Assembly: GCA_905178155.1 (NCBI GenBank) | Contig: CAJINV010000014.1 | Span: 1 to 64,000 of the forward strand | Origin: Amoebophrya sp. A120 | Lineage: Eukaryota > Protista > Dinoflagellata | Length of the DNA stretch: 64,000 nt | Direction: 5' to 3' | Shown here: positions 1 to 63,000 of the stretch, in pieces | Layout: each line of letters begins with the position of its first letter | Numbering within the stretch: position 1 is the stretch's first letter | The notes under the pieces: generated by a model | What the model was told of the DNA's origin: nothing | Databases searched by the model: none | The model's input: only the letters and a program-made list of their open reading frames with translations | Translations under genes and position numbers: made by a program

Positions 1-1439
1 CTCGCAACAAAACGAGCGTGCCAAACACTTTATGCGCTTGAACCTAACCGATACCGTCGAGCGTAGTGCGCTGCGGGAAGCGACTACAAGCAAAGAAAGA
101 CGGTGGACACTTCTTGAACGCTTGAGCCAGGAAAGGTGCCTAAACTCTAGCAAAATGCCCAACACGGTGAGAATGGTGTACAGACGGTTTCTATGGACAC
201 CCGTCGCTACACTGGCTACAGTCTACGTATTTCTCTTCTTCTATACTATCTAATATGTTGGTTCAAAAAATGAACTTTCAACAAAGTGAGCCAGTTCATT
301 GTGTGAAATTGTAAGAAGTAGTTCTCAACACAGTCAGAACAGAGCACCGACCACGGCTGTGGCTGAGGATCGCCTTGCAGATAACTTGCCATCTTCTGAC
401 TCTGAAGATCATTGTGCTGACGAGGACTGGCGAGTGTTACTTATAATAAATATCATTTATTTTTTCATCCGTGGGCGGCTGGGCCTTAATATTCAGCGCT
501 TCCGCTTCCTGAAGAATGATCAACAACAAAGAAATATCTACAACTTCTTGCGGGACTGGTAGCGTTGGTTTCCACTCTATTGCCTGTGATTGCTGTGTTT
601 TTTCGAAGTCGTTCAAGATGAACACCCACCGAAACACTTTTTTTCGTGCGCTGTGCTGTAAGACCGGCTTCACCTTCAGCCCCTCATCGAGCTCGACGGC
701 TCCTGCTCGAGGTTTTTGCTATATCAAAGTACTCACTTTTTCTTTGAACGAGCACTGAAAGCTGTCTGAACATGCGTAAAAAGTATACTTAAATCAGGCA
801 CATTTATCTTTCACCTCGTCAGCATTTTGCCGTGGCGATCCATTACAAGGAGGTGAGTCAAAATTAAGATCTTCGTGCTTCATTTTATTTCGCAAACAAG
901 TGCAATTAATATACTGCGTTCTTCATTGCTCGCAGGTCATTCTTGGCCAGATGATACATAGATACAGCACAAGACTCAAGTTAGTTAGTTAGTTAGGGGG
1001 GCCGCCCCGCTCCTCGCAACTCGCACTTCTGATGGTGAAAAAAGCAAAGAACGGCCAATACTGCGCCGTTGATGTGAAACTGCACAAATTAATAAAAGAA
1101 AAATAACAGCAGGATTTTTTGGGCTGACGATGTTGACGCGATTTCTACATTTTATTTTTTCGGTAGCTACGTGCGGTTTGTAATTTTGATACTAGGAACA
1201 GTAATAATGACACGAAATTGAATCATCTACAACAACATATTTTGGTCTACTAGTTGGTTACAGTCTATCGCTTTATTTTTGGTTTTGGATATTATTAGCA
1301 GTGCTCGCGCCTACTTGTTCTTGGCATGGTACGGAATAGGTGCAGCACCATCGTGATTTGTGTTTTTTCTCTACTTGAGCAAGAACTGCAGCAACAACAG
1401 ACACCACTCAACTACTCAACTTCCACAAAAGGAGACACC

Positions 1440-39000: not shown

Positions 39001-42000
39001 TCTCTTCCCTGCAGAACCCGGTCGCCAGGTGGTACTTGAGCGCATTTTCATCTTCGAGGACATCGCCACACCGGTGGCACCGGTGCACGTTGTGCTTGTC
39101 CAAGATGTATTCGCGCCGCCCCATCCTGTTAATTCGCATCGCCCGGCCGTTGTCCAACGTGGCCCAGCCTGAAGCTTTCAGCTTTATCACGTTATGGAGC
39201 CCATTGTCCCAGATGACGAGGTGAGTTGGCACCAGGTCGCCCATGCGCTGTGTACAGACCGCACGCGCTGCGGCCCTGTACTCTGGTTTATGGTCGATTC
39301 CCGCCCACTCCACCATCAGCCCCCAGGTCGGAGCTGCGCCTTCTTCTTTGCTCACCATGCGCCTCTCGGTCATGGCAAACTCATCCCGCCTGTCTTTGCG
39401 CTCTGGGTTGACAGCCATAATCTCCGTTCTTCCCTTGTCCGCATTCAGCTCCAAGCCCACAAACCTGCAGGCCCCTGCCAGCTCGGTGACTGCAAATTGC
39501 GCTTCGGACTCAGATCCGGTTTTGATCGCCAGATCATCCACGAACCCGAGCAGGCTCATTGCGAATCCCCGAGCCTGTGCTGTGGTCCACTTTTTTTCCT
39601 CTTTCATCACTTCCGCGAAACTAGTGATGGCGAAATCAAGCACGATGGCAAACAGCAACGGCGACAGCGAGCTGCCCTGCCGTATGCCGGCCATTTGCTT
39701 GATGGCTTCCGTAAAACTGTCGGCGGCTAGCCTGATACTGACTCGCGCCCCCTTGTCGTACATGCCCCGAATTACTTCCCCAAGGTTGTCAGGCATTCCC
39801 TGGCGCTTCAGTACTTTGCGCATGATATCCCAGGCCAAACTGTCGAAGGCCTTCAGGAAATCAGCAAAAACGTAGTACGCCCGGCGGCCTTCCCGCTTGC
39901 AGCGCTCCATATCCCGAAGAATTTGGAAAACTCCGTGTCTGCAGCTTAGCCCCCTGGTGCACCCCTTCTGCCTTTTGTCGATGGCGCTCATCGCTTCTGT
40001 TTCAATCCGGCGCAAGATTATGAGGCCAATGAGTTTTTCAGCAAAGGTGAGCAAGGCTATCGGTCGGTAGTTTTTTGCTTGGGCTTTGTCGCCTTTCTTG
40101 TGGAGCATCGCCAGCACCGCGCGGCCCCATGCCTCGGGGACATCCTCTCCCCGAAACACTCTCCCCGCACAAGTGCTACTACAACTGCGCGCGCGAGCTC
40201 GCAGTTGCGGATCAGTTCTACAGGTGCTACCCCAGCGAAGGACTTGCCGGCCTTAAGACCCCGCAACGCATCACAAATCTCCGCTTCACTTGGGACGGCG
40301 TCAAGCCCCTGGCACCACTGTTGCCGCGGTTCTTGCTCCAGCCTTTCCGCGCATTTGCGGAAGCTGTTCGTGCTTTTGGTGGCCTGACTTGGTTCGGGGC
40401 GCGGCTCGCCAAAAATTTTTCCCCAGAACTGCGCCCACATTTCCGGAGGGCCCGGTAGCTCCTGCGCCGGTTTCCGCGCTTTGCCCGCCAGCTGCCGGAC
40501 AACTTCGTAAACCTCTCGCGAGTTCCCGGCGTTGTCCGCCTTCTGTAAGTTGTCCAGCTTCTCTTCCACCCAAGCTTTTTTGTCGCTTTTGATGCTCGCC
40601 CGGATATCCCTCCCGAGCTTGTTCCGCTTGGCCCTGGCGGTTTTTCCTTCCTTGGTCATCAGCTTTTTCCGCTCCTCAATCTTTTTCCAAGTTGTCCCTG
40701 TGATCCAAGGCTTGCGCGGGCCGCTTCTGGTAACCCCGGTGCTGAGTTTTTCGATCGTGGTAGAAAGAGCTTCTTCGAACTCCTTCCACCACTCATCCGC
40801 GCTACGCCCACCCGTTTCTATTTCGTTAACAAGGGTCGGGCCGTCGTAAACTTCCCCAAGGCATGCGCCTACAGCTTCTGCGGCTTCCTCGGTTCGGATC
40901 CACGCCCCGGCCCCCTTGTTCACAGTCTTCTTCTTGGTGATAGAAAGGGATACTTCTGCCTCCACCAGTCTGTGGCCACTCTTGTGGTACGTCTCACCCC
41001 GCACCTGAAACGCACACACGTACCCCCGGTGCTTCCACGAGACAAAAATGTGGTCGTACTCTCGCCGTGGTCTCGCCCCCTTCCAAGCTCCCTCGAAAGT
41101 GTACCGCCGCACCCACGGTTTTTTGAACAAGGACGAAACGTCGACCATCTCCGCTGCGGCTGCTAGTGCCTGGAGCCTGTCAGCGTTGTCAGTCCGGCGC
41201 GCGAAACCAGCGGAGAGGCCGCAGGGACCTACTGTAAACGGAAGCCCGGCCTCCTGTAGTTCCCGCTGCGGGCCTCCCGCCATCTCAGCATTAAAATCTC
41301 CTACCGCAATCACGATGTCCCTGCCACTGTGATTGGCGATTTTTCTCGTTGCTTTTTCCCAGAAGCTGTCTTTGTCCCCGACGTCTGCCGCGTTCGTTGG
41401 AGCGTAGCAGCCGTGGAGATGGACTCTTTGCCCATACGGGGTCCGGAGGGAAATTCGGCCATGTCGCCCGCACTGCTCGCTGTCAAAGTCAACAACTTCG
41501 ATGCTGTGGCGGACGACAAACAATACCCCCCCGACCGGCGTTCCGGAACTATTTAGCCACGCCCCGCCCCCATACAGAAGATACTCGCCAACGCGCTCAC
41601 CGGTAATCCACTCAGTCACTCTACTCTCCTGCGTCACCATGACATCGAGTTTCCTGGATCTAGCGTCCTTGATCAAGCATTCCATTTCCACCGTCCGTAT
41701 CCCGCTGTCCTCCCTCTTGCCGAGGGTGAGCACGTTCCATGTGCCCAGCCTCAGCTTCTTCTTTGCGGAAGCGTGCGCGCCGCGTCGGCCTCGAGAGGGA
41801 TCCTCCCTCCCGGCAGGCTTCGCCCTGCTGCCGCCTACAGCAGGGCTCCTCCCTGCTGTGGTGTCGTAAGTCGCGGCGCCTTCAGCTGCGGCTTGGTTAA
41901 TTTGGGATCTCACTTGCATCATCAGCTCGTACTACTCTCCCCAGATTCCAACAACCTCCAGTCCGCTTCGTACCGTTGAACACAAGTCGATCACGTTTCT

Positions 42001-45000
42001 TCCACGAAGGATAGAGCCCCGGGATTATTTCTTTTCACTGAGCGCAAGGTAGCAGGTGCACAAAAGTCCAGCTCTTCTCTTCTTCTCTTCGATAACAATA
42101 CTAATGCCTTCAATACAGCAACGCGGTTGGCGGCCACGAGCTAGGTCAGGTCCATCAGCTAATCTCTCAGATCTTCTTTCCAATCTTCAGCCCGACCCAG
42201 TCAGTCTGCTGCAAGGACGTTGCAGTTCGTGTAAGTACAGCTGAGCAGACTCGTCGATCAGACCCAAAGCTCGACTTTCTAATTACCCTGCACAGAGTCC
42301 ACTTTCGCCCCGTTTGTTGGTTTTCCAAACGTGTTCTGCTTCCCACCTCCTCCTTCGGTTACTACCGCAGCAGTTAGTGTGGCGCAAAAAACCAGTCTCT
42401 CAGTAGATCGAATTCCGAGCGACCTGCTCCAGTTTCTCCTCGTCACCGTCAAAAAAGTACTATCTTACACGTGGCGCTCGAGGTACTGCAGCTCACTCTT
42501 CGTAGTTCACGTTCTTGTTCAAAGTTTATCTTCCAAATTCAAACTGCAGTAAACAACTTCATTCATTTTACATTCGCCAACAGAAATCTGGAGTACTCAC
42601 CACCATCTCGCACCACCTATCTTTCCATATTCCAATCTTAACATCTCGCCATCAGAACTTCAACTTCTTCGCCCCGATCAACACTCCACTCCGCATGACC
42701 TTCGCAAGGTTAGCGCCGGACCGTTTGATCGGGACTCCGCCCTTCTTCGCCTCAGACTGGGACGCCGCCGGTGCGCGACTACTGCTGCTGCTGCTGCTGG
42801 CAGCCGCCTGCCGCTGCTGGCCTTGTGTCCCCTTATTTTCGCCCTGTTTCGCCTTTTTCTGGGATGGCTCCGCTGCCTGTGCGTCATTTTTATCGTTTTT
42901 GCCCGCGGCGCCCGTTCCCTTTTCCTCCTTCGCCTGCTCCTTTTGGTCGTTTTGCGCTGCGTTCTCGATTTTCCTCGCCACCTTCCGCGCCTGCTGCGGC
43001 GTACGCGGAAAATTTTCCCGGACCAAAATAGGGAGGACGAACATCCGCAGCCAGTTTTTTGTGTCGCTCTGGACGAGGGAGAGCAAGGTCATCGAGTGGG
43101 AATTTGGTTTCAGTATGACGTCCGCCCATCCCGTCGTGGGATGCACGTTGAGGAAGCGCACATATCCCGGATCCAAAGCCTTGAAGGCACTCTGCATCTT
43201 TCCCGACAGCGCGGCGCATATCTTGGCTGCATGGCTGTCGTAAGTCAGCTCTGGGTCCTCGGCTATCGTCGGTTTCCCCGTCTCGGGGTCTTTCACGATC
43301 ATCTTGCCTTGGTCGCCTTCTTTGATGATGTGGTCACGGCATTTTTGGGCTATCAGGTGCATACTTTCCATTTTCCAGAACTGGATCCGTTCCTGGTGGG
43401 TCTTGGTGTCAAAATTCGCGATGAACTCCTCTCGCTCCTCACGGAGTGCTGACGCAGTCATTATCGGGCTGGTCGCGGTGGCCATCCCGCTCGGACGTTT
43501 GTTTGACGTGGTCGATGTCAAACTCTGTAGCAAGCCGTCCTCTTCCTCCGCAGCGTCTTCCATAGGCGCATCTTCATCCTCGTCTACGAAGCTCACCGAC
43601 CGGTTGTTATTTTCCTTGCCAGCCTCACTGCCGGCTTCCTCGACGTCATTGTTCCCACCTGTTCCTAATTCCCCATGTTCCGCTTTAGCCTCCTCGGCCC
43701 AGATAGAGAAAGGCTTCAAATTATCGAATCCTTTCAAGCTCACCATGAATGACGACCGGATTTCAGCGAGCTGCTTCTGCACCGTCTCGAACGCCTTGCC
43801 GGGGGTCGATGGCGCATTTGGCGCACGGGGGTCGATGGCGCAACTGTTGCATGAACTTGTATATGCAAGAACGGCAAAAGTGAAAGGGCTAAGTTTGCGC
43901 CTTTTGCGTTACAAGTTCCGCACAGATTTAGGTGCTGTCTCGCCCCTCGCAGATTTGTCATGCGAAGCAGCTTGAGCATCTGGTGCGCGGCTTAAGGTAG
44001 TTTTGCATGACAAATTGATGTAACAGTTGAGAATGTAACGCTTGAGAATTCCATACGTCGACCCGTCCACATATGCGATGTACACGCCGAGAATGTTGCA
44101 GGTTGGCCCCTGTGCCGCCATGTAGAACTTTTCGAAGCCCAGGCACGAGTCAAAAGCGTCACACAGAGCGCTGCAGTCGTTCTTCGAGGGTGTCAAAGGC
44201 GTTTCGTCGAGCTCGAGGCGTGAGTAGTCGAGTACAAACATCGTGTTCGGCCAGGGGTTATGAAGTGCAAAAAGGTCTGGGTCTGGAAACTTGTGATGCT
44301 ACGATGTGCATGATGAAAACACTTCCGAATGCAGTCGGGCATGAGAACTTCCCAAAACGCTTCCTCATAGGCAATCCGAATGAGAAGCTGCGTTTTTGCA
44401 TGACAAAAGAGGCTGCGACTTTTGTTCGTTATGCAATACAGATTTTCTAGGTATGGAAAGCTAGCATTACAAGTCCCAACCTTCCAGACCCAGACACTTT
44501 TACAATCCATAGGGGTCCCACCCCCCGTGTTCCGGGGTGCAAACCCCAAAGCCAGCAAACTCGTACGGCTCCGGAATGATGACACACTCGTGATACCCCA
44601 AGCCCGCGAACTTCTCCAGGGGCGCGTAGTGGCACTCGGTGCTGCCTCCAGTGCAAATATGTCTGGATGTCTGGAAGGGTGGATGAACTTGTAATGCTGT
44701 CTGCGGATAATAAATTCTAAAACAAAAACTATCTGCGTTCTTGCATGAGCAGCAAGAGGAGTCCAGTTCTTGGCACGCGGAGAGGGCATTGATTTCTCAT
44801 GCGTGACAAGCATCAAGCAGCCTTCAAAAAATCTGTGATGCTAGGACTTGCATCATGCAAAATGTGCATGCCCACAAACCCCGACTCTTCTAGACCCAGA
44901 CATATTTGCAATGCATATGCTGTCGGCGGCATTGTTTTTCATGCAGCAATATGAAATGTAAAAGCATCGTACTAGTATAAATCGCATGACAAATTTCATC

Positions 45001-48000
45001 AGCAAGAGAAATGAAATTTGTAATGCGGGTTTAACTTGAGAAAAAAATAACTTGTATTGCATGAATACGATTAGTACGAGTACGATACTTTTGCACAGGG
45101 TAAGCAAGCCCCTTGGTGGAGGTGTACGTCGTTCGGCAGCCCTATGGAGGTGTCAGAATTGAAATCGACAAAGTTGAAAAAACTTGTGATGCATAAAATG
45201 CATAGACGCGAAATACGTGTGTTGCAGAGCAGGCAAGTGAGGCCGATTGCAAGCCTGTTGGGGGTTAGCGCTCGAGCTGCCAAAGTAGCATGAGAGAACC
45301 AATCTTCTTTGCCCAAACAGCATGACAAACTGGATTCAGGAACGACCAAAATTTGTCATGCGCCACTTGGAAGCTGGGTTCTAACAGGCATCCATTTTAT
45401 GCATGACAAATCTATCATTTCATTTTCAACTTTGTCAATTTCAATCCTGACAGTTCCATAAGCCCGTTACACTTCGCACAGTACCCGGCTTTGCCGCACG
45501 CGGCAAGGCATTCCCGTTATGACACCCTCAGAATGGAAATCCTCAAAGTGGAAATGATTTGTGATGCATGGAATGCGACACCAAAAAGACTGTGTTGCAG
45601 CGAACGCAATGGAAGCCGACTATGTATTGTCCTGCTACGGGTTAAGGATTGGAGTGCTGAGTAGCATGCCAGAAACGCACCCCTTTGCCTAACTAGCATG
45701 ACAGACGCGTTTTGAGTGCCCGGGAAATTTGTCATGCGCCGACTATAAATGGTGCTTCAACTGGCGTCGTTTTTTTTGCATTACAGATTACTTTCACTTT
45801 GAGGATTTCCAACCTGAGGCTTTCATACCCGTTGCCGGGGCCCGCAGTCTTTGCAGAGAGGCTGGTATCCAAGAAAAAAACGCTGCTAGTGTAAATTTGT
45901 CATGCGCAACAACATGCAAGACGAGGGCGTCTGTCATGCTTGGCCTGCATCGACGTAGGGTCCATCAAGGAGCGTTTTCACGTACTATCGTATCTGCGCA
46001 TGACAGGATTGTGCTGTCATCATGCCAGACAAATTTGTAATGCTGTTCCTCCAAAAAAGTTACACCTACAATGCTTTTTTCTTGGATAGCTGGGTAACAT
46101 CGGGCTCGGCCCCATACCCCCGGCGGACTTCCACGAGAGATAAATGCTGCTCAGGGGGTATCGAGAGGAAACATCTCCCCTCCTCATACCAAAACGAAAT
46201 CTCTGGTGCTGGATTTGTGTGCACAAATCAGCTCTGTATTGCAGGAAGGCACTGCGGCCACCTCCAAAGGCTAGCTGGGAGGATATGGGTCTAGGTGTTC
46301 AGCATGGCAAACGCCTCCCCTTTAAGCCCAGCACCATGGCAAATCGCTTCGATAATGGGGCGAAAGCTTCTGCCCTTGTCGTCTTGCAAGACGCCTGTGA
46401 TTTATGACCTCAAATCAGCAACACAAATTTTCGGAAACATAGCTTTTCCATATGGGGAGGGCGGATTTTTCATTTTCATAGGGGGGACGGGCTCCTTCTG
46501 CGCAAGAGACAAACTCTGGGAAGCAGAGTACGAATTATATCCAATCTCCGGCGGCTTCAGCCAGAAGGGCTCGCTGGCGTAAAAGTGCACCCCGCAGATG
46601 GTGAGGTAATCATCAGGAGCATTACCTATCAAAAGAAAAAAGTTCGTCACGATCACTCATGGGCATTTTTGCAATACAAAATTGTCTCTCATGCGTAAAA
46701 ATGCATCACAGCCACACTTCATAAGGGATTTCCCTAGTGTTTCTGCAATACAAGGAGAAGGCGTGATGCTAAAAAAATTTGCAATGCAAAACCTGCAACT
46801 TAGTGACTGTGACAAACTTTTTTCTCTCCATATTACCAGCAGCATTAACAATATCATCAGGCCCTATGACATACAAGGTGCGAAACGGCTGCTTTGCTTT
46901 AAGCGCGTCCTTATCAAATGCAAATATGTCTGGCGTGTTGTCTGGAAACAAGACCTTGGTACAGCACAGGGAGGAGAACGACAACGAGTTAAATTTTCAA
47001 AAGTAAAAATAAATAACAACTACGCTCAGAAAATGAGCCCGGGTCGTCTAGTAATGCTAGCTTTGCACCCCTGGTGGAACATTTGCAAATAGACGCACTT
47101 ACTGCATAGGCTTAGCAAACATATGAACTAGCATAAGAGTCGCAGCCATCTTTCTCATGCAAAAACGCAGTTTCTATTCCGGCTGCCTATGAGCAGAAAG
47201 CGCTCCGGACACTTGTCTTGCATGGCTGCGTTCGGAATTGTTTCCATCGTCCACGCTTTAGCATCACAAGTTTCCAGAGACCCAGACATATTTGCAATGC
47301 ATAGTCCTGCAGCAGGTCCACGAATTCCCCTCCCCCGCCGTTGAAGTCGTCAACTTTATGATATTCTCCGTCGCCCGCGTCGCCCCCTATGCCAACGCCG
47401 GGAACATTGTCCGAAAGTTTGATTATCAAATGCAAATTATATCCCTGGGTCTGCAAGGTTGGTGGAACTTGTGATCGCTATTTCTGCATTCTAAAAAATC
47501 AGTATTGCATGACCAGCAAGAGGGGTCCGGTTTGTGCCGCGACATGTAGTAAGTATTTTTTAGTGACCATTTCACAGACTCCTTGCGGGCGGCGTTAGAG
47601 CAGACTTAGCCTCTGCCAATTCCGTGGCGTTAGAACAGATTTAGCCTCTGCCAATTATACCCCTAGGTGGACATCATCATCACCCGTTCCACTTCCTAGT
47701 ACAGGCACCAACCGACCGCAACAGCAGAACCGCCTCCGATTTCTTATGCGTGTCTACGGCCAGTGGCCGCTAGAGGTGGCGGGCCTGGCTTACCATCCAA
47801 GCCCGTGGGCAGGGTGGAGCTCCGGTATAGCCTTGATGGGTTAGTCTTACAAACTTTAACGGCTAACGGTTTTTGTGGTTGGTTGCGCGCTGATGGGTGG
47901 GGCATTTCTCATGCGTATGGCGTTCTCAAACGTTACATTCTCAAGCGTTTGTGTTGCATGAATTTGTGATGCATGACCAGCGAGAGTGAAAGGGAGAATC

Positions 48001-51000
48001 TTGCAGCTGTTGCATTACAAACTTGGCACAGATTTAGGCGCGGTTTAACCCTTCGAGTCTTTGTTGCGCGCAGCCGCTTGGTTGCGTACATGCGAGATGG
48101 GGAGGGCATCTCTCATGGCGATGCGTGCATCCAGTTTGTGCGACATGTATCGCATCGCTTTGGCCTTTGACTCCTGTCAGGGCGGCGTTAGAACAGATCT
48201 AGCCTCTGCCAATACCGTGGCGTTAGAAAAGATTTAGGGGAGGGCATGGGGAGGCATTTTCTCATGCGGGGAGGGCATTTCTCATGCGGAATAGGCATCA
48301 GGGAGCCCTCTAAAAATCTGCGATGCTAGGTCATGCATTCGAAGCATTATGGGTCATGCAAAATATGCATGACAACCCTGGCAATCTTCCAGACCCAGAC
48401 ATATTTGCATTTGATATGGACCTATGGATTGCGAATGTGTCTGGGTCTGGAGAGTTGAACTTGTAGTGCTGGTCTTTAATTATTTGTATTTCCTGTGTAT
48501 TAATAAAAATCTGAATCTGTATTGCATGGCCAACAACAACCAAGGTCGTGCCTCTTTTGTCATACAAAAACGTAGCCTCTCATGCGAATTGCTTATGAGA
48601 AAGCGCTCTGCAATAAAGTTGTCATGCTTGGCTGCATTCGGCAACGTCTTCATCATCCGGTGCTCAGCATCATAACTTTCCAGACCCCGACTTCATATTT
48701 GCCCTTGATAGGACCCAACCACCGACGCGGGGTTCGGTAGTTTTAACAATGTTCATCAGCTCTGCCTTAGTTGGATTTGATCCGTATGACAGTGCACATT
48801 CCCCCCTCCCCCTCACGTAGTAATGCAGAATACCATTTTTTCCCTTTCTTTTGGCACTCTCTGCATGTTAAATTTTGATTTAAGAATCTCAAACAGTATA
48901 TATTACATCCCGCGTGCAGATCTGTGTCTGTCGTGCGGAAGCCACCTCTCTGCCGTTGCTTGTGTTGTTGTTGTTGTTGATGCAATAAGTACAAATGAGG
49001 GGAAGAGGTGGCGGAGTTGTGCAGTCTCATAGTCCGACTGCGGGATGCATCCAGGAAAAAACACCCATCCCCATCCAATTTGTCATGCAAAACATGCACA
49101 AAATCCACTATTTGTCATGCAAAAAATGGATGGGGATGGGTGTTTTTTCCTGGATAGGATCCACAAGCACGTAGCCGTTATTTAACCGCTGTCGACAGCA
49201 GTCCCCCCGATTCCAGATTTCCATGTAAGAAAGTGTGTGGCTTTTTCCATCCGCAAACTCCACGCGCCACCAGCCTGCCGTGTCTCTGGTGTGGCTACAG
49301 ACCGCCGGCCTGCCAGTTCGCGTGGACGCTTGGTATTTTTCCCAGCCCCACTCGGTAACCCTGCCCTTCTCGTAGTACAGCGGATCTTCCGCTTGGCCGA
49401 CAAGTTTTTCCAAAACAGTAGTCGTGTAGTCTGAGCTCTGCGTGGCTTTCAGCAGAATGGGGTTCACTCGCAGTCGCGGACTTTCCTCCCACCAGGGCAC
49501 TTCAGTTGAGGGGATGTAGAAGAGCACGCCGCACTATGAAAGTGCACAACTCCCCCTCCGCCACAACATTTGTCACGCAAAATTTTAAGTCCACCCTTTG
49601 CCTGTTAGCACTGTTTGCATGACAGGCTCCGGAATTATATCCAAAACAGCACTAGTACAACCCTCTAGGGACTTCTCACGCAATATTAAAGGCTGCATCT
49701 TTGCCAGCGCTTGTGTTGCTGTTCATGCAACTACACAAATGCGGCGGAGGGGCAGTTGTTGTGCACTCTCATACACACAGGTTTAACACATCTCGCGAAT
49801 GAGGCACCACGTACAAGTACCGAAAAGACTTCGACGCAGTTAGAGCACTTAGGTCCACCCGCTCCCCATCCTGGCAGTTGTTTTCATTATCCAATGCAAA
49901 TATGTCTGGTGTTTTGTCTGGAAACAAGACCTTGGTACAGCACGGGGAAGAGAACGACTTGAACTTTTTGAAGAAAGAAAATAAAAGAGAACTACGTGAA
50001 TGCAGTATGTAGAGAGAGATTAAACATGCTAATATGTCCACCGGTGGTACTAATTATTACTACTTATACTATCACTTGCGCAACATACAATTTGGGTGCA
50101 ATGAACTTCTGCCCACGGGGTCCCGCAGGCTCTACCGAGGTGCTACGCTGGCCAAAGCGCTAGGCACCTGGGTCGGGAAGGATGCAAGGTTTCTTTGTCA
50201 TGCTTGTCCGGCATGACTGAAGAGTTTATTGTGACGGGTGTCCAAGAAGCGAGCCGTTTGCTTGTCATGCAAAACGCAGTTTGTCGTGCGGAAAGCACAA
50301 CACTAAGCCGCCCAAATATTTTTTTCTCATGCTCGGCTGTGCATTACAGAGAGTTTAATTATATTCACAACTGTTTAATATTCACAACTAAAAAGCATTA
50401 CAAGTTTCCAGACCTCCCAGACATATTTGCATTTGATAATCTCCCTTGTACGTTGGTTCGGACGCTGAGCAGTCAACGTTGGAATCGCTACAAATTGCTT
50501 CCTGTATCCTGTGTAAAAACGTCCCCGCCCAATGGAGGGTGTCATGCAAATCTGCGTCTTCCTTAAAATGTCTCTCATGCGGAGCCCCATGAGACGCATT
50601 TTCTAGTCGTGGCTTGGAATTTGCGATAATCGAATCGGCGCGATGATGTGCAGCTCCTAGATCGGTGATGCTACTGAACTAGCTAAACACAACTACACGA
50701 CGAGGCCAAACTTGTCATGCGCAACAGCTAAACCTTGTTGAGGTGTGTAGCAGATTTCCCATCTTGACTATGGGGTGTTTATGTACTAGAAAAGACCACA
50801 TGAAAAAAGCACAGACGATAAGCAACTGACGAGTATGGGGTATTTATGTACTGGAAGAGACCAATATAAAGCACAGAGAAGCTTCAAACTTTCAGGAAAG
50901 GAAGGAGGAGAACCAACTACGACGAGAAGAGAAATTGAAATAGAAAAGCATGCTACTATGTGGCCACTGCTAATATTCTGTACTGTGCTTCTATGGTGTG

Positions 51001-54000
51001 TGGCCGTTTTTACACAGGATACTCTTGTAGTCGGGTTTGCCATCCTGAGGATCCTCGTCCACATCGGGGTCGCAGACTGGGACGTCGCCTGGCAGCTGGA
51101 TGTGGTATGATGCACCTGCACTTGCACTCATCTGCGCATTCCAAGCCGTCTCCAAGTCATTCTGCGTCGGCGCAGAATGGTTCACCCCGGGCGGATCCAA
51201 CAGGATGTGAGCGTTGTTGACGCGATCTCGTCCCACGGTGCCGGTTCGTGCTCGATTCCAAATTCTCATGCTTGAGCGTCGCGTTGTCAAACTTGGTTAC
51301 GTGGATGGACGCTGCCACGGCGTGATTTTCATTTTTGCTTGGCAACTAGTTCATATCTAGAACGGGCGGGCGCTCCGCGCCCGCCGGCCCGGCGACAAGG
51401 GGGTGCAAGGGGGAGCGAGGGAGAAAGGGCCTACAGGGTAGCGGCTAGCGCTACAGCCTCAAAACATGCTGGACAGGCGAAAAAAAGAAACGGCAGCGCC
51501 CCTGGCCTTCCTCCCTCGGTCGGCGGGAGCGAAAGAAGTGTGGGTCGAGAGAAGGCCGCGAGGCGCCAGGGGCGGTAGGGGGCGCACAGCGCAGCCCCGG
51601 TCCGAGCCGCCACAGACAGGTCCGGCGGAGAGCGTGCCAAGACCCTTTTCGACGGCCCGGGAGGCGAGTCACAGGAAGATGAACGAAAAGACAACCCCAA
51701 AAAAAAGTAAGCAGGCCAAAGCCCGGGGTCGGGGAAGAAGCAAAAAGCCCCGGAAGCGAAAGGGGAAACGCCCAAACAGGCCGAAGGGGCGAGCCGTAAA
51801 GAAACCGGAAACACGCCCGGCGGCCCAAAGGACACGGGGCAAAATCAGGCAGCCCCGGTGAGGCCGAAGAGCCCCCGCGGCCGGCAGTGGGCACGCGACG
51901 AAGCCCGGCCTAGAGAGCCACAGGTGGCAGGGGAAGGCGCAGGATGCCACCAAACCCCTCGCAACAGGGGGCGAATGGCAAGGGGCGCCAGAATGCAGCA
52001 CGAATCCGGCCCGGGGTAGCCAATCGGCGGCCGCCAGCCAGGCATCTAAGAGGGTTCGGCAAGGGGAGACCGCAGCCCCGAGCCCCCTGCCCGAGGCTCC
52101 TTGACAGGCGGCCCGGGCGAGCTTTTGTTGGTCTATTGTGTTTCCATCGGGGTTTCTGGCTCCGGCTGCATTGGCGGGTTTTCTCACTAGTGTTTCCGCT
52201 TTCCCCAAAGTCGGGCTTTTTGTCACTAGTGGCTTCACTAGTGGGCGCCTTCACTAGTGGCGCCTGTCACTAGTGCCCCTCGTGCTTTTTTGTCACGCTA
52301 AAAACACTAGCAGGATTTCTACTAGTAGCCGTTTTTCTACTAGCAGCTTTCCACTAGTAGAATTCCTACTAGTAGCTTGCAGCCCCGCGTCCGCCAGAAT
52401 TTTTGCAATAAAATTATAGATAATTGTTCTGCTGCACCAACAAGATATTGCAAAAAGGAAGGCTGCGCTTCCAGCGTGACAGGTTCGGCACGGACTGCAG
52501 AGAAGTACCTGTTGGGCTTGACGTTAATGTAGTTGATGTAAGTAGCCTGATCAACATGCAGACGAGTGTCTTCAAGAATGTGTGACGCTGACGCAGGTAC
52601 TAGAGGTTCTGCATGACAAATTTGCACAACGAGAAGCCAAGACACGACGACGTCGCAACAGCAAAGGTCCACGTAACACTGGAGGCGAACGTGATATCAA
52701 GAGCGAGTGGGCTTTCCCGTCGGCAAACTCCATGCGCCACCATGCCCCCTTACTGTTGTTTTCTGCGTTGAGGGATATCGCCAGAAAAAACTGCTTCACT
52801 GTAAATTTGTAATGCACAAAATGTATTTCTTCACAAGTGTTTGCCTTGCTGTTGCTACACATGCAAGACAGTGGGGTTTTAGCTGTGCTGTTTTCCCTTA
52901 GGAACCTTGCATGGCAAATTTCTCTGTCATGTAGAGCAAACTTGTGATGCAAAACCTGCAAAATGAAAATCCTTACAATGAAACACTTTTTTTGTACGAT
53001 AAGGGAGCAAAGGTTTTCACTACCACCACCGTGCCTGGTGTTCATGCCCTTCTCGTAGCCTAGTGGTTTTATAGCGTCATCTATCCACATCACGTTTCTC
53101 TTTTCGCTATCAAAGGCAAATATGTCTGGGTCTGGAAGATTGCCATGTTTGTCATGCATATTTTGCATGACCCGTGAAGTCTGTAATGCATGCACGAGCA
53201 TCACAGATTTTTTTTAGATTATAGAGTGCTTCCTAATGCCTATTCCGCATGAGAAAAGCCCTCTACTCCGCGTAGTCCAAACTGGAGTCCTCTTTACTGG
53301 TCACGCAATACATTTTTTTTTGAATCCAGAGACACCAGCGTCACAAGTTTAGAATCTTCCAGACCCAGACATTCTTGAATTTGATATTCGCTTATGAAAT
53401 GCAAAAGTATCGCACTCGTACAAATGCACTACAAATTTCCTCAGCATGAGAAATAAAATTTGTAATGCAGATTTGCCTTAAGAAAAACATTTGTAACGCA
53501 TGATTGCAATACGAGTACGATACTTTTGCACAGGATATCGCTCTGTGTGGCCCAAAGCTCCGACGCCGGAACCTGGACTTCCTATGCAAGAAAAAAACTG
53601 CGTAAGTGTAGCTTTGTAATGCATAACTACATGCAACAGAATTACGCCTGTCATGCCAGACAACCATGCAGTCCTCTTTTCTATGTGTGTTTTCCCTTAC
53701 AAGCCACGCATGACAGGTTTATTTCGCTCCTGTCATGTAGCGCAAATTTGTGATGCTGTCCGCGGCCAACGAATAAAGTTACACTAACGCAGTTTTGTTC
53801 TTGGATACTTCCAGCTGCTCGTCTGCAGCTCTGGTCTTTCGTTCTACCTTCACTTTCTGCCCTTTCTTCGCGATTCGAGCTCTGGAGGAGAGCCCGATGA
53901 CCTCCGTGGTGGTCTCTTTCTCCCGACTGATGCTTGTGAAATCATGCCCACGCTCTTTATTCTCGTGAGGACTTCTGCTCTGCACCGCGCTCCTCTTCGG

Positions 54001-57000
54001 GGTAGTTTCGGTTCCACTTGCGCTCGCAGTATTTGTTGAATTTGTTGCAGTTGCTGCGTTCTTTGTCTTTCGGGAGTAGTTGTGGTTGGAATTATAATTA
54101 TTCTTCTTCATCTTCTTCTGGGGCTGGCGTTGGGCTTGGCTTTCGCTTTGATGCCCCTCCTTCTCTTCTTCTTCTTCTTCTTCTTCTCGCGAGGTTGCTA
54201 TTAATGTCACCTGCGTCGTGGTCGCCGTCGCAGCAGAGGGCGGCGCGGCATGCGTTGCGAAGTATACCTCCCAATCAAATGCAAAAATGTCTGGGTCTGG
54301 AAGAGTCCGAGATTTGGTATGCTGTTTTTGCATGACACATAATGTCTGTCATGGAAGTCCTAGCATCACAGGTTTTTAGAGGTTTTCCTGATGCCTATTC
54401 CGCATGACAAATGCCCTCCACGCGTAGCACAAACTGGACTCCTCTTGCTGGTCACGCAATACAGAATTTTTCAGAGTCCAAAGTTAGCATCACAAGTTCC
54501 ACTCTTCCAGACCCAGACATTTTTGCATTTGATACTCCCAATCCTCGTCCGCGACCGCCTGCACAGGGATGACGCAAGAAAAGTAGTCCGTCACACCAAA
54601 GAACTCGTTCCCCGGCATGTCATTTGTAAAAACGTCCCCACCCCAGAGTCAAGATGGGGATTTTGCAACACAAACCTGAAAGTTTTGGGAGCCACGCATG
54701 ACAACTTGCAGGCTGTAGTGTAATGGTGTTTAGCAAGGGAAGCCGCATAACAAATCCATCTCCTTATCCTGTTGACAGCATTACAACTTCCATAACACGA
54801 TGGGAAATGCCTCTCCTGGGGATGCGCATTACAAATGCTCTTGCGCTTGCAGATCTGCATTACAACTCTGGTGTGGGTACGTTTTTACTTACGGTACGGC
54901 ACGCTGGCACACTCCCGCTTGGTCGCGGCGTCCTTTTTACAGCAGGCCCCTTTCGTATGAAAGAGCACAACTCCCCCTCCCCCTCATTTGTCATGCAAAA
55001 TTCCAAATCCACCCTTTGCCTGTTAGTACTGTTTGCATGACAGATTATTCCGGAATCCGAAACAGCACTGCCATCGCCTAGGAATTTGTCATGAAAAAGC
55101 TGCATGATCCTGTGTTGCTGTTCATGCAACACAAATGAGGGGGACGGAGGGGGAGTTGTGCACTGTCATATTTCGATTTGCCGTCCCTGGAGTCGCACCC
55201 GAAGCACCACCCCTCGATGGGAAGGTTTTCGTCACTCATCTCCCGGCACACCGCGGGGCACTCCATCTGCTATTGCGTTCTCAAACGTTACATTCTCAAC
55301 GGTTACATGAATTATTTGTCATGCAAAAATACCATAAGCAACCACACGGCCCAGCGGCTGTGCATGACAAATTCTCGAAGGGCTATTAAACAGAATCTAA
55401 ATCTGTCCGGAATTTGTAATGCTACAGGTCCAGCAACCTCCTTCTGGCTTTGGATTTTCATTTTGTCACTCTTGCATCACAAATCCATGTCACAGTTGAG
55501 AACATAAGAACGTTTGAGAAGGCCATATCTGCTTGGGTCCCATTGGAACTGCCGCCATCTCGTCCTCGGTTGCTCGCCCGGGCAGGTTCCCCGGCGTGTA
55601 GAGCACGCACTGATGATACGGAAAGTAGCTCCCGTCGGGTAGCTTCCCAAAGTAGCTCGGCGGGATCTGTTTGCACTCTGGGGGGTCGTTCTTGTCATTG
55701 TACCCGTATCAAATGGAATATTTGATGCCGGGATCCTCTTTGGGGAGATTCATTTTGCAAAAACACTTGTAACGCTCTGCGGACAGGTGGACGAGCAAAT
55801 AATCTGTGATGCATGTTGATGCGCTACCGCGCATGTTTTTTCGTTGTAAAATGCAAAAACGCAACTTCTCATGCACTTCACGCACTATCCAGTCGCTCAG
55901 AAACTAACTTGTCATGCGCGTGCCCATGATCATATTTGACGCGGCTCATGATCCGCAAAGTAGCATCGCAACTTTCCTTCAGAGGACCCAGATGATGTGT
56001 TTTCAATGCATAGCCTGCAACACGCACCAACCTCGCTCCCGTCCGCTATGAGAGTGCACAACAACTCCCCGTCCCTCTCATGTGGATGTTGCTGGCAAAA
56101 AAAGCAATACAAGTGTCGGCAAGTAGAATACAGGTTTTGCCGCGTGACAAATTCATCACCCAGGACTGTAGTGCTGCTTGAGCTTCCAGAACTTGTCATG
56201 CGAAAAGTGCCAAGAGGCAGAGGGTGGTGTGGATTTGGTATTCTTGTTTTGCATGACAAATGGAAATGAGGTGGAGGGGGAGCAGTTGAGCACTCTCATA
56301 TCCGCTGCGTCGCACCCACGACATCGGCCAGGTGTGGCGCACATACTCCGCTATGGAAGCGTCAGGGTTGAAATCGACAAAGTTGAAATGATTTGTCATG
56401 CATAAAATGGATACCAGTTGGAAGCCCAATTTCTAAGCGGCGCATCACAAATTATGATGGTGCCTAAATCCAGTTTGTAATGCTGTTTAGGCGAAAAAGA
56501 CTGATTCTCTCATGCTGGTGTAGCAGCTCGAACTGTAACCCCAAACAGGCTTGCAATCGGCCTCAGTTGCCTGCTCTGCAACACACGTATTTCGCGTCAT
56601 GCATTTTATGCATCACAAATTTTTCGATTTTGTCAATTTCGATCCTGACAGTTCCATATCCGCTCTGCAGAAATTAGAGTCGCCGTTACTAGATTATGCA
56701 GTGCAACAGTATCGTACTCGTACTAATCAATGGCGTGTAAGTTTATGCATTACAAATTGTTCTTTAGGCCAATCGCCCGCATTTTTACAAAGTAATGCAG
56801 CTATTGCAATTTTTACTAGTACGCTACTTTTGCAATGCATATACATCATCTTCCGGGGTGACGTGGTCGTAGCGAATGCACTGCTGAAAGCCTGGCCCGC
56901 TATCACAAGGAAAAAATCCCCCTCCCCACATCAAAACGAAAATTCTGAGGCTGAGTGTGCGTACACAATGCAGGTCTGTCTTGCAGAAAGTGCTTGGTAG

Positions 57001-60000
57001 CATTTTCTCAGCCTGTTGAGGTATCGAGAAGGCTAGCAATTACGCACCGCAAACAGGTTTTCTGTGGTCGAAAGCGCGTGACAGACGGGACTCGAATGCG
57101 CGGCCACATGGCCCCCATTAGATAGTTGCCCTCTACTAGGCAAGACAAAGGTGATTTATGACCACAAACCAGATTCAGAAACTTCCATTTTGATATGGGG
57201 AAGGGGGATTTTTCATTTTGACACCCGCAGTGTTTTCCGTCTGCGGAGCACCGCGGCGTCGCTCCCGACGAGAGGAAAATAGGACTCCCGCCGGTGAAGG
57301 ATACACCATTTTTCGCATATCGGCACGCCTGTGTCATTCTTGTGTAGTCTACCGTTGACTCGGCTTTCACGGCGTTGTAGTCGTGCACCGCTTTCAGCTG
57401 ACAATCACCTGTTTCCGTATAAAAGGCAAAGCCCGTGCAGTCGCTCCGTGCTGCACACAACGCCAGGCATTCGTCGTATATTGTAAGGAAAAACTCCTCC
57501 TCCCCATATCGAAACGAAGTTTCTGACGCTGGATTTCCGTACACAAATCCGAGCTGTCTCGCAGGAGAGGACTAGAGGCATACGCCGCGCCTGAATACAG
57601 AGCTTCTGACGTGGACGCTTAGCGTAAGCGTCGGAAATGTCTATGCTATAGCCCAAGCAGCATCGCAAACCGTCCGCATAATGCGGCGGAGACTGTAGAG
57701 CTGCCTTCTTGCAGGACAAATGTGATTTGTGCCCTCAAATCAGCAACGCAAGAACTTTTAGGAGACATACCTTTTCCATATGGGGAGGGGGGATTCTTCC
57801 TTTCAATATCGTACGTTTTCTGAAAGGGGTTGTCCAGATCATTGCCCTCGTGGTTACGGTCCTCGTGCCTCCCACACGCATCGTTGATATCAAGCTTATC
57901 CAAGAAAAAAACACCATCGCAGTCACATTTTGGAGGGTATGCATCAGACTCTCGTATGCCAAACTTTTTTTGTGTTGCAAAAACATAAGGAGAAATCGCC
58001 TATAAAAAGCCCTGCTCTTATTTGTCTGTGATGCAGTTCTGCGCATGACAAATATTTTTGTTTATGCAAAAATATGCAAAAGTGATTGTGATGGTGTTTT
58101 TTTCATCTTGGATAAAGCTGCGGGTAGTTGTAGTACGGCAGGGGCGCCAATTATGGAGGCGTCCGGACGGAAATTTTTGACAAAGATGGAATAAATCTAA
58201 ATTTCCAGGCATGATCAAATGCAACGCACAGAGTCGTGCCTGTCTTGCGGGGAGGGCAAGCGACGCCGATAATTGCAAGCCTGTTCTTTAGGGGTCCTCA
58301 CGACGAAGCTACTAAAGTAGCATGACAGACCTCGTCTTCTTACTTTGCCCAAAGACCCTGACAAACTGGACGATTTCAAGCATCGCAAAGTATTTTTTCA
58401 ACTTCGTCGATTTCGATCCTGACACTCCCATACAACTACACGTCGGCACGCGTCCGTCATTTCCAGGTAGTCGGTTTTATTATTGGCAACCTCCTTGAAC
58501 GCCGTGCCTCCAACTTCGCCTTTCACCGCACAATTGTTTCCTTTGTTGCGCTATGCAATGCAGAAGTATTGCACTCGTACTACTTGCAAGTATGCATCAT
58601 GACAAGAAATCTTCTTCCTATAGGTAAAACAGCACGACGACAAATTCCATTTTTCTTGTAGCCAAAATTTGTATATGCAATTTATACTAGTACGATACTT
58701 TTGCAAGAATGCATATGGGTTTCCGCATGTGCACTAAGCCCGCGCAGTCGGGATTTTCCGCGCACCAATCCCGGCACTCCTCGTATGTCAAATGAGCCTT
58801 GACGCGGTAAACAGTACCCCCTGCAATGAGCTTATCCGCTCCTTCGACATTCGTGCGAAGCTTCTTCTCGCAGAAGTCGTCAATGGGCTGGTGTAGTGCG
58901 GACCGGCACTGATCGGTCATCCGCAGGTACGGTATGAGAGTACACAACTCCCGCCGCTTCCCCTCATTTGTATTGCATCATGAACAGCAATAGATACAAG
59001 CGTCAGCAAGAATGCAGGTTTCGCATGACAAATTCAAATTTGGACAGGAGTGTAGTGCTATTCGAACTGCCAGAACTTGTCATGCGAGCAAGGCCATCAA
59101 GAGCCAAGAAGTAATGTAATGTAAACTACTAGGCATTTTGCAAGACAAATGAGGGGGCGGGTGGTTGTCGTTGTGCACCCTCATATACGTTATCGCCTCC
59201 CCTGGCTTGTCCTCGAGGTCCAAATCGTTGAACGGAGCGTTTTTTATTGCACAGTTATCCTCGTCGGAAAGAGCAGTTCCAACAAACACAAAACCCGTGC
59301 AGTCGGCGTATCTTCGGCAAAAATCCTGGCACTCCTCAAAGGTGAGATGCCCCATCACGCGCCCCATGTCCCCTCCGACGTCTTCGTCGTTGCCCTTGAG
59401 ATTCTTATTGTCCTGCCTTTTGCAGTATGCATTGCAAAAGTACCGTATTAGTACCAATTGCGATTACAAATTTTATCAGAAAATAAAACGAAATTTGTAA
59501 TGCTAATTTTTTTTTTTGCTAATTCAGGTATAAAAGGTAGGTTTGTCATGCAAGATTGCAACTAGTACGAGTACGATACTTTTGCACTGCATACGCAGAC
59601 GTCCTCGACTTTTAAGCTTGTTGTTCCACGACCCGAATGCAGCCCGCTCTTGGTTTCTTTATTGCAAGAAAAAATCCCCCGCCCCTCCCATATCGCAAAG
59701 ACACGCCTAGGTGGAACATTTGCAGAAGTGCTGATCTGTGGCTACCGATCGCGTGTCTTGCGAGAAGGCAACTCCACAGGCTCCGCCGCATCATGCAGGC
59801 GGCTTGTGATGCTGTGGGCCCTACAGCGTAGACGTTTGCCATACTGGGTGCCTGCTATGTGAAAACAATGAACAACTTAATACTATACGCCTGCAGTTCT
59901 CTGCTGCAAGACAAATCGGATTTGTGCAGTCACATCACGCAAATCCAGCATCAGAAATTTCGTTTTGATGTGGCGGGCGGGGACGGGGAGATTTTTCCTT

Positions 60001-63000
60001 GCGGTACTCTTGTGAGGACATTTCCGAGGTGGACACCTGCCTCGCGTTCGCCTCTAGAAAACCAGTATTAGAGTTTACTGTGTCCACCTGGGACTTTCCC
60101 AAGATGAACAGCCGTTGGAGCACGACGCCGTCTTTTCCCGGGCGCACCTACTGAGAGGAAAAGTCTCCCCTCCCCATATCGAGCCGAAGTTTCTGCTGCT
60201 GGATTTGCGTACAAAAATCAGATCTGTCTTGCAGAAGCACGCGCCTGGCCGCATTTTCTGAGCCTGTTTGGGTATAATGCACAAGGCCAGCAAGAGCAAT
60301 TGCGCATGACAAACAGGTTTGCAGTAGTCGAAAGCGGGTGACAGACTTGCTCTGGAATGCGAATGCGTCAAATGTTGGCTCCTATAACAAACACTATACG
60401 CATGACAAAGATGATATTTGTGACCACAAATCAGCACCACAAATTTTCGTTTTGATATGGGGATGGGGGATTTATTTTCATTTTGATAGCACCGTGATTT
60501 TGTGCACTTGCCCATTGCCCCCCTCCGGGTCGTTCGGGTCATGCAGGTCGTATTCCACTACGTTTCCGGTCAGCCTTATGGATGTGTCAGAGTTGAAATC
60601 GACAAAGTTGAAATAATTTGCCATGCATAAAATGGATGCCAGTTGGAAGCCCAATTTCGAAGCGGTGCATGACAAATTATTCGAGCATCGGAATCCAATT
60701 TGTCATGCTGTTTGGGCACAGGCGACTGCTTTTGTCATGCTACTTTAGCAGCTCTATTTCAAACCCTAAACAGGCTGACAGTCGGCCTCACTTGCCATCC
60801 CGGCAAGACAGGCACTTCATGCCTTGCATTTTATGCATGACAAATTATTTCAACTTTGTCGATTTCAAACCTGACACATCCATAAGCCTGTCTGTGGCGT
60901 AGCTGTTGTTGTACTTATTCAGATCGCTAGGATAGGTATCCAAGAAAAAAACTTCGTTACTCGATATAACACAATAAACGCCCCCAAACAAAATAAAACT
61001 GGTTTCGCTATGGGCAGCAGGGCACTTCCGCATTCCAACTTTCCAAGTGCTAGAGCTATCAGGCGGTCATCTGTCGTGTGTTGACTCTTCTCCCAGGTGG
61101 TGACTGTTTGGCATATCGCGCCAGGCCACTGCACAACCCTAACTACTTAAGCTAGCGCTGCGCCCCCGTCGGCCCTTGACTTCACGAAAGTCTGCGGTCC
61201 TTGACTTCAACCAAGACCGGCTCCTAAAGATTTCCTAAGGGGCCGGCTTTGGAAAAAGTTCGGGAGGCTGGGCTTTTATCAATTCTGGCGCCGGAACTGG
61301 AAAAAGCTCAGAAACGAAGAAACGCCCTGAACTTTTTCGAAAGGGCGCGGCCCCAAGCACTATCTGGGTGGCTTTAACACGTGCCGGGGCACGGCCGGAG
61401 TGCGGCCCTTTTTTCGGTGTCTGCGTCTACTTGATTCCCGGCAAAAATTGCTCGGGTTCTCAAGAAGCCGCGCCGTTTTTTTTTTGGTGCGCCGCAGTCA
61501 TCACCCCGAGGGAATGCTAGCTGGGCTGGCATGCCGGAAAAGAGGGCCGCACCACTCTCCACCCAGATCCGTGGCGTAGCTGTTGTTGTACTTATTCAGA
61601 TCGCTAGGATAGGTATCCAAGAAAAAAACTTCGTTTATCAAACAAAAATCTGTTATCGTTATCGGATTGGAATTTGCTGGCAAATGCCAAATTTTTTTTA
61701 AGTTAAGCTACTGACTTAGCTACCTCAACTATGTATGATTTTGAACCACTTGCGTGCATTTGGCCAAGCGCCGCACCGAAGCCTGGATCATGTCGAGCCC
61801 ATTCTGCCGGACCGTTTCGAGCTGCGCGCCAACCCTCCCAGGTGGATGCGATTTGCTCAGCTTCCGGCAGTGCAAGTTGGAAGCTTGTTTTGGGCTCATA
61901 AAGATCAATTTGTAATGCGGACCTGCGTCACCGCCGCGTCACGTTTTTGACATGGGAGAAGTGCTGCCGTGCCCACTGCATCACGCAGGTAGATGCCCAG
62001 AAATAAGGTCTTTTTGGGTGCTCTGGTTGCCGCCCAGTCGTTGATGATGAAATCTGCCCACCATCCCGTGGCCACCATCGTCGCCGGGCTCTGGCCTGAG
62101 AAATTACAGGAAATAGGATGGCGCGCGGACTATAAAAGTGACCAAAAAGTTTCGATGTTATCGGTTTCGGCCAGGGCCTCGGGGATCTGGCCAATCTGGC
62201 CAGCAAAAGTGGCCACTTTTCCGAAGCCTCCGGGCAAACCGATAACAAGCACCCTTTTTGGTCACTTTTATAGTCCGCGTGCCGTCGTGCTTCGTGTCTG
62301 TTATCGGTTTCGGCTTGGCCACCCCCCCGAAACCGATAACAGAGCAGGGCTTTGCTCAGTTTATCGGGCCCGTGCCGTCGTGATAAAAATCTGTTATCGG
62401 TTGCCCTTTTGACATCGCGCCAAAGCGAGCCTGCGCGAAGTAGACCCATAAACTTGAGCTAGCCACGACCTGAGTCGGACCTTAGAAGCTGTCTGGCATG
62501 ACACCAGGCGCGAACCTGTTGCATGTTCTCCTGCATTACTACAGAGTTAATACATATTTGCACAGTTTTTTTCTTGCATAACAGGTCTGAGAGGACCCAC
62601 AGCCGTCGGTGAAGGCAGCGGATGGAATTTGGCTCCACGAAGTCTCCGAGTTCACCTTGATCCACATCAGGTCGTTGTCGGTCGCGCTATGAAAATTGTC
62701 GCTGTGAATGCCTGACCCGTCGAGCGACTTGGAGAGGTCCGTGTCCGGGGGCGGGCTCCCGCGGACGCGGGCGACCACTTGTAGTCTCTTGTCCGCTGGG
62801 GCAGATCCCACGGTCATGAAATAAAACTCGGCCTCGCTCTGCGTCAGCTGCTCGTCGCAATGGTGCACGGGGTCGGCGACTAGATGGCACTGATCGATGT
62901 CATATCCTGTCCAACCTGTCTCAATGGTATTTTCTTGCTTCAGGCACCCCGGTCGCATCAGGTAGCACTTTCGTTTTCCGCTCTCCGCACTATCCTCGAG

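Follow-up and report, generated by a model that had tools for sequence, protein, structure and literature searches.

In a gene of the dinoflagellate Amoebophrya sp. A120, two non-canonical introners stand back to back with six nucleotides between them. We consider it probable that the two elements, E1 and E2, are excised in two separate reactions, each with the register defined below (-1/+4), and that a single base, 53388, is left between them as a one-nucleotide exon. The analysis covers a window of 64,000 nucleotides, positions 1 to 64,000 of contig CAJINV010000014.1 (assembly GCA_905178155.1). How tens of thousands of Amoebophrya introns are removed with neither GT-AG ends nor a detectable U1 is left unexplained in the relevant passages of the A120 genome paper (PMC7789003), and the E1/E2 locus offers a natural three-way reporter: separate removal would give introns of 150 and 284 nt, one-step removal a single intron of 434 nt, and exon skipping a 435-nt frameshift. 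A one-nucleotide exon by itself has precedents; it is the combination with the register that makes the splicing question directly testable.

Anatomy of the pair and its transcript junction

The examined part of the host gene (46500-60143, minus strand) holds 30 introners, and the gene extends past both of its ends. Once each element is removed together with 5 nt, 1181 codons are open. First in transcription order comes E2 (53393-53537, minus strand, 145 nt), followed by E1 (53108-53386, minus strand, 279 nt). Both carry TAT..ATA inverted repeats, matching at 20 of 25 terminal positions in E2 and at 21 of 25 in E1. The direct repeats are perfect over 5 nt: TTCGC for E1, whose outer copy at 53103-53107 is likely a target-site duplication, and TCGCT for E2, with its outer copy at 53538-53542. 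Their inner copies (53387-53391 and 53388-53392) overlap within the 6-nt spacer TTCGCT (53387-53392), the two repeats being offset by one base, and the letters TCGC are common to both outer flanks (53104-53107 and 53538-53541). The preliminary description had given these element coordinates, the 5-bp repeats and the one-base offset, all of which were borne out by the sequence check.

The two elements are unrelated: they come from different families, and no long match links one to the other. Elsewhere in the 64-kb window E1 has eight long family matches and E2 seven, at 67-85% identity. The ends of E2 fit TAT-N7-AAA on both sides; in E1, AAA stands at positions 11-13 of one end, whereas the opposite end has AAG.

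Under the -1/+4 register, the E2 intron would span 53389-53538 (minus strand, 150 nt, ends AT..CG) and the E1 intron 53104-53387 (minus strand, 284 nt, ends AT..GA). The predicted physical exon between them is position 53388 (minus strand), an A on the sense strand, and it is untraceable in the mRNA because the letters on its flanks are identical. The neighbouring exons are of ordinary size: 40 nt upstream (53539-53578, minus strand), bordered by joints 53576>53807 and 53103>53538 of sequencing run X4, and 101 nt downstream (53003-53103, minus strand), matched by an X4 piece at 53002-53103 with 0 differing letters.

Eight of 11 sequencing runs were compared with the locus. None is recorded as RNA; the status of X4-X7 as RNA, under one shared sample code of one study, is a guess. 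One contig of X4, likely RNA (7729 nt, depth 37), carries the joint 53103>53538, which skips 434 nt, as well as joints of 231, 230 and 267 nt. The 53103>53538 joint reads exactly CAG AGC GAA AAG AGA AAC, the cDNA junction predicted beforehand. By record coordinates, runs X5, X6 and X7 each retain 215 nt from 53807 to 51271, the same total as the 39+102+74 nt of X4; their 434-nt skip is derived by length only, since the 15 of 237 joints listed all come from the DNA-type run X1. The frame needs one net base between E1 and E2 in the mRNA: a skip of 434 nt is seen, and one of 435 nt would break the frame. Skips of 284 nt or 150 nt alone are absent among the X4 joints listed, which come from assembled contigs that drop rare forms. 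The raw-read RNA runs X9-X11 have depth 0 on the exons here and match only look-alike pieces of elements. Three further X4 joints, of 1308, 1220 and 123 nt, lie inside elements at depth 6-18 and share no letters; they probably stem from further copies of these families and were not counted.

A probable cut register in the host gene

Eight distinct intervals, compared in 16 checks, lose exactly the sum of their elements plus 5 nt each (16/16, difference 0). Seven of the eight (25 elements) are independent of any boundary setting, their element ends coming from the sequence alone; the eighth, which holds E1/E2, is circular for this rule, as the left end of element 51277-52696 was set by subtraction. 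Compensating errors of +1 and -1 could hide within the interval sums; removals of single elements are all +5 as well (4/4: 230, 231 and 267 nt on the X4 contig, 258 nt in X5/X6). The rule is indifferent to the letters at the junction and extends to direct repeats that have decayed to two or three matches of five. Element 51277-52696 itself has a left end that barely resembles an inverted repeat and a direct repeat of 3/5; it is a decayed element, yet it is removed, at a length that subtraction puts at about 1425 nt.

Mismatched repeats indicate where the cut falls, as they show from which copy each base came. Nine of the 14 elements with an observed edge are informative in this respect, and the one 5' overhang compatible with all nine is 1 nt, three of these edges being derived on the assumption of +5 and one from the boundary set by subtraction. 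Element 50505-51021 alone permits only the 1-nt 5' overhang, and needs neither the +5 assumption nor a subtracted boundary. From these mismatches we infer that the upstream cut lies 1 nt ahead of the 5' TAT of the hairpin and the downstream cut 4 nt past its 3' ATA, in data that cover one gene and one strand. The resulting intron ends have no fixed dinucleotide across the 30 introns of the host gene. At the same time, -1/+4 is the register that gives GT..AG ends when the duplicated target is NNAGG, and the plus-strand element ending at 62580, with flanks of the NNAGG type, has GT..AG ends under it. That locus (60937-62580) has two left ends, 60937 and 61614, with the same flank, and 62580 as their one common right end.

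A fixed -1/+4 cut register appears to be new. In the passages of the A120 paper that treat the subject, the position of the cut is variable or unknown, and a figure legend there describes splicing as falling at variable distances from the hairpin, which speaks against a fixed register (PMC7789003). In the one gene analysed here the cut maps to -1/+4, and the +5 does not vary. The literature searched, mostly open-access, yielded no paper on a fixed cut register in Amoebophrya. If general, the register would settle ambiguous intron borders, tie introners to GT..AG geometry and correct annotations, in which pairs such as E1/E2 would be called one 434-nt intron. It seems to us an even call whether, genome-wide, the hairpin serves as a fixed ruler (-1/+4) that stands in for U1 as well as for a splice-site consensus, takes no account of the direct repeat and acts on one stem at a time with such precision that one-base exons are routine.

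A second back-to-back pair lies in the same gene: elements 47424-48416 and 48423-48710 (minus strand) flank the spacer TGGACC (48417-48422), with an inferred 1-nt exon at 48418. Its left element is 993 nt long, with a decayed repeat (3/5) on the outer side and an inner element end at 47916. The interval 49157-46620, which includes this pair, loses 2265 nt in X5 and X7, precisely six elements plus 5 nt each, and by this length arithmetic a net 1-nt exon at 48418 fits. The same host gene also has an 11-nt exon, 49033-49043, between elements 48785-49031 and 49048-49156.

With 30 elements placed uniformly, the probability of at least one 1-nt exon is 0.22 and that of at least two is 0.025; at least two exons of 5 nt or less are expected with a probability of 0.41. 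As post hoc values they are at most suggestive of an insertion bias toward +1. If the ruler reading is true, two 1-nt exons in one gene hint at a preference for inserting one base from an old element. A pattern scan of metagenomes (37 of 64 parts) found three of 116 loci to resemble the elements of the window, with spacers of 5, 8 and 24 nt, too few for testing a bias in spacing. The same element families occur on contigs L113, L080 and L112 of a public assembly (prefix JACKZZ01). On L113 (51-479) two elements are 8 nt apart, with a predicted net 3-nt exon, and close pairs are therefore not confined to a spacing of 6 nt; on L112 (301-350) the elements are 24 nt apart, and on L080 (444-474) two ends are 5 nt apart with ambiguous pairing.

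One removal or two

According to the preliminary description, the frame is kept only if both elements are removed separately. This argument fails: because the outer flanks share TCGC, a single 434-nt cut in any of six registers gives an identical mRNA, and the cDNA junction therefore cannot tell two removals from one. Two separate removals leaving one net base are nonetheless the best-supported reading, on other grounds than frame and cDNA, namely the +5 rule, the -1/+4 register in other introns and the folding. The element arithmetic agrees, E1+5 and E2+5 amounting to 284 + 150 = 434 nt.

The strongest alternative, which we regard as unlikely, is that both elements and the spacer leave in one step as a single 434-nt intron, using the 5' end of E2, the 3' end of E1 and the shared outer repeat TCGC, with no real 1-nt exon. 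Its mRNA would be identical to the two-step product, the X4 joints include no intermediate, and the outer ends share TATC with 14 of 25 in-register matches. Repeats of 3-5 nt are reported for A120 introners (PMC7789003), and in fungal stwintrons the loss of both twins in one step by way of a terminal stem is described as mis-splicing (PMC12403724). However, each of the six single-cut registers requires an overhang that totals 4 instead of 5, and GT..AG ends occur in none of them; an overhang of 4 is seen in none of four single-element removals and needed in none of the seven independent intervals. Cutting once between the normal outer sites would take out 435 nt, which breaks the 1181-codon frame. 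The second pair, which has hardly any outer repeat, would moreover have to depart from the rule in the same way. Folding points the same way: the sense strand folds into two separate stems (z = -10), pairing of the outer ends of E1 and E2 has a probability of 0.00, and forcing it costs about 9 kcal/mol. The last three TAT/ATA pairs at the end of E2 are themselves predicted with a probability of only 0.06, similar to several other removed elements; the ruler is therefore not simply the last predicted base pair, and it may be set by a motif or a protein instead.

Two separate excisions, the reading we prefer, would most likely be sequential, E1 and E2 leaving one after the other. Owing to the overlapping repeats, the five letters upstream of the 5' cut of E1 would be unchanged by the removal of E2, and because the direct repeats overlap, either order of removal is workable. 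Whichever intron leaves second would then be an ordinary single introner, flanked by normal exons on both sides. This bears on the earlier claim that recognition proceeds with no need for exon definition. A cut does appear possible with a hairpin 2-5 nt away, but the claim is weaker than it was put, because sequential removal leaves a normal exon (40 or 101 nt) beside each intron.

As to the machinery, we lean towards the U1-less spliceosome reported for this genus, whose sites would be placed by the hairpin. In A120 nearly all spliceosome proteins and U2, U4, U5 and U6 are reported, and U1 was not detected in A120 and A25 (PMC7789003). It is improbable, to a greater degree than one-step removal, that a small structure-recognising nuclease and a ligase, and not the spliceosome acting in sequence, make the two -1/+4 cuts together, with the base as a true separate exon. 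The unconstrained junction letters across 30 introns would suit such enzymes, and euglenid hairpin introns leave as circles rather than lariats, by a route given as unknown in the relevant part of the source (PMC11282704). Against them stand the coincidence of the register with the placement of GT..AG, the reported spliceosomal components and the difficulty that a free 1-nt piece would presumably be hard to retain.

Least probable of all, and in our judgement only barely worth entertaining, is that the joined contigs are DNA of an element-free allele or a retrocopy, or that the real product is a mix dominated by another junction. The labelling of X4-X7 as RNA is a guess, coverage of the locus is missing from all three raw-read RNA runs, and X1 has no entry at the E1/E2 junction among the 15 of 237 joints listed. 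On the other side, none of the 30 elements is present in the joined contigs, whose listed pieces show 0 differing letters, the contigs of X1 run through elements and exons of the host gene, and 1181 codons are open in frame.

Precedents, host protein and other elements in the window

The introners of A120 (Farhat et al. 2021) have inverted repeats that start from TAT, continue with about seven variable bases and an A run (PMC7789003), extend over 8-20 nt or more and join the intron ends (PMC7789003). They are further described as having 3-5 nt direct repeats that overlap the borders, non-GT-AG ends and repeated families (PMC7789003), with tens of introns per gene (PMC7789003; PMC12130899). E1 and E2 share the inverted repeats, the direct repeats at the borders, the families and the non-GT-AG removal with them. 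The motif and the GC content of the window, near 0.5, fit A120 too. The passages of that paper bearing on introners make no mention of adjacent pairs or micro-exons (PMC7789003), whereas here two pairs leave one net base.

One-nucleotide exons are known from Arabidopsis APC11 (PMC4674806) and Fusarium CYP621A (PMC12940212), and resemble the present case in being constitutive and required by the frame (PMC4674806, PMC12940212). For APC11, sequential, intron-defined removal was proposed, and the same argument on exon definition was already made there (PMC4674806). The sections of these reports that deal with the exons do not report transposon-like flanking introns (PMC4674806, PMC12940212), whereas here both flanks are non-canonical repeated elements. 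Unlike in APC11 and CYP621A, the 1-nt exon here is not demonstrable from the mRNA alone, whose sequence would be no different after a single cut.

Fungal [D1,2] stwintrons are also similar, with introns one base apart in register, a two-step removal and a one-step alternative (PMC12403724). In stwintrons, nested GT-AG introns of the U2 type are involved and the single base lies in the donor of the outer intron (PMC12403724), whereas E1 and E2 are neighbours without nesting, and the mRNA is predicted to retain the base. Identity with [D1,2] stwintrons was considered and is ruled out, the elements being side by side and without GT-AG ends. The nonconventional introns of euglenids are alike in having a terminal stem placed asymmetrically to the cuts, with positions +4..6 pairing with -8..-6 (PMC11282704), as well as repeat-like junctions and a likely MITE origin (PMC11282704). 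They differ in lineage, motif and offset, have a purine/pyrimidine preference at the junction and leave as circles (PMC11282704); the introns of the E1/E2 type have no fixed junction dinucleotide. A 1-nt exon between non-canonical introners appears to be new, no paper on one having been found in the literature searched, mostly open-access, and its component parts are of known kinds.

The pair could have arisen when two MITE-like elements inserted in turn, each with a 5-nt target duplication and the later one a single base away from the earlier; either order of insertion would yield the present layout. Dense insertion probably produced the 1-nt exon as a neutral side effect, and it is unlikely to be a functional module.

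In the host gene, PAN_1 is matched above its Pfam cut-off by one exon (25.7 bits, cut-off 21.4); another two exons match PAN models below the cut-off, and one matches F5_F8_type_C_2, also below it (20.2 against 27.8). Three of the seven host exons scanned with Pfam have no match, among them the exon adjoining the E1/E2 junction. By eye, the junction falls within the first of two similar modules. A weak search for a full-length relative of the host, covering 217-2000 aa only, had none of 60 candidates pass.

Across the window, 67 TAT..ATA pairs are 60-600 nt long with at least 16 of 25 inverted-repeat matches, and 39 of them have a perfect 5-nt direct repeat; about 0.07 would be expected by chance at 1/1024. 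Element 9299-10697, 1399 nt long, is possibly young or compound; its inverted repeat matches at all 25 of 25 positions and its 5-nt direct repeat is perfect as well. A stretch of 6.6 kb, 37455-44055, is bounded by inverted repeats of the introner type and a CGTCG repeat. It holds a 418-aa ORF and, on the minus strand and in different frames, ORFs with matches to reverse transcriptase (PF00078, E 9.8e-23) and endonuclease (PF03372); judged by this sequence content, it is likely a non-LTR retroelement inside an introner.
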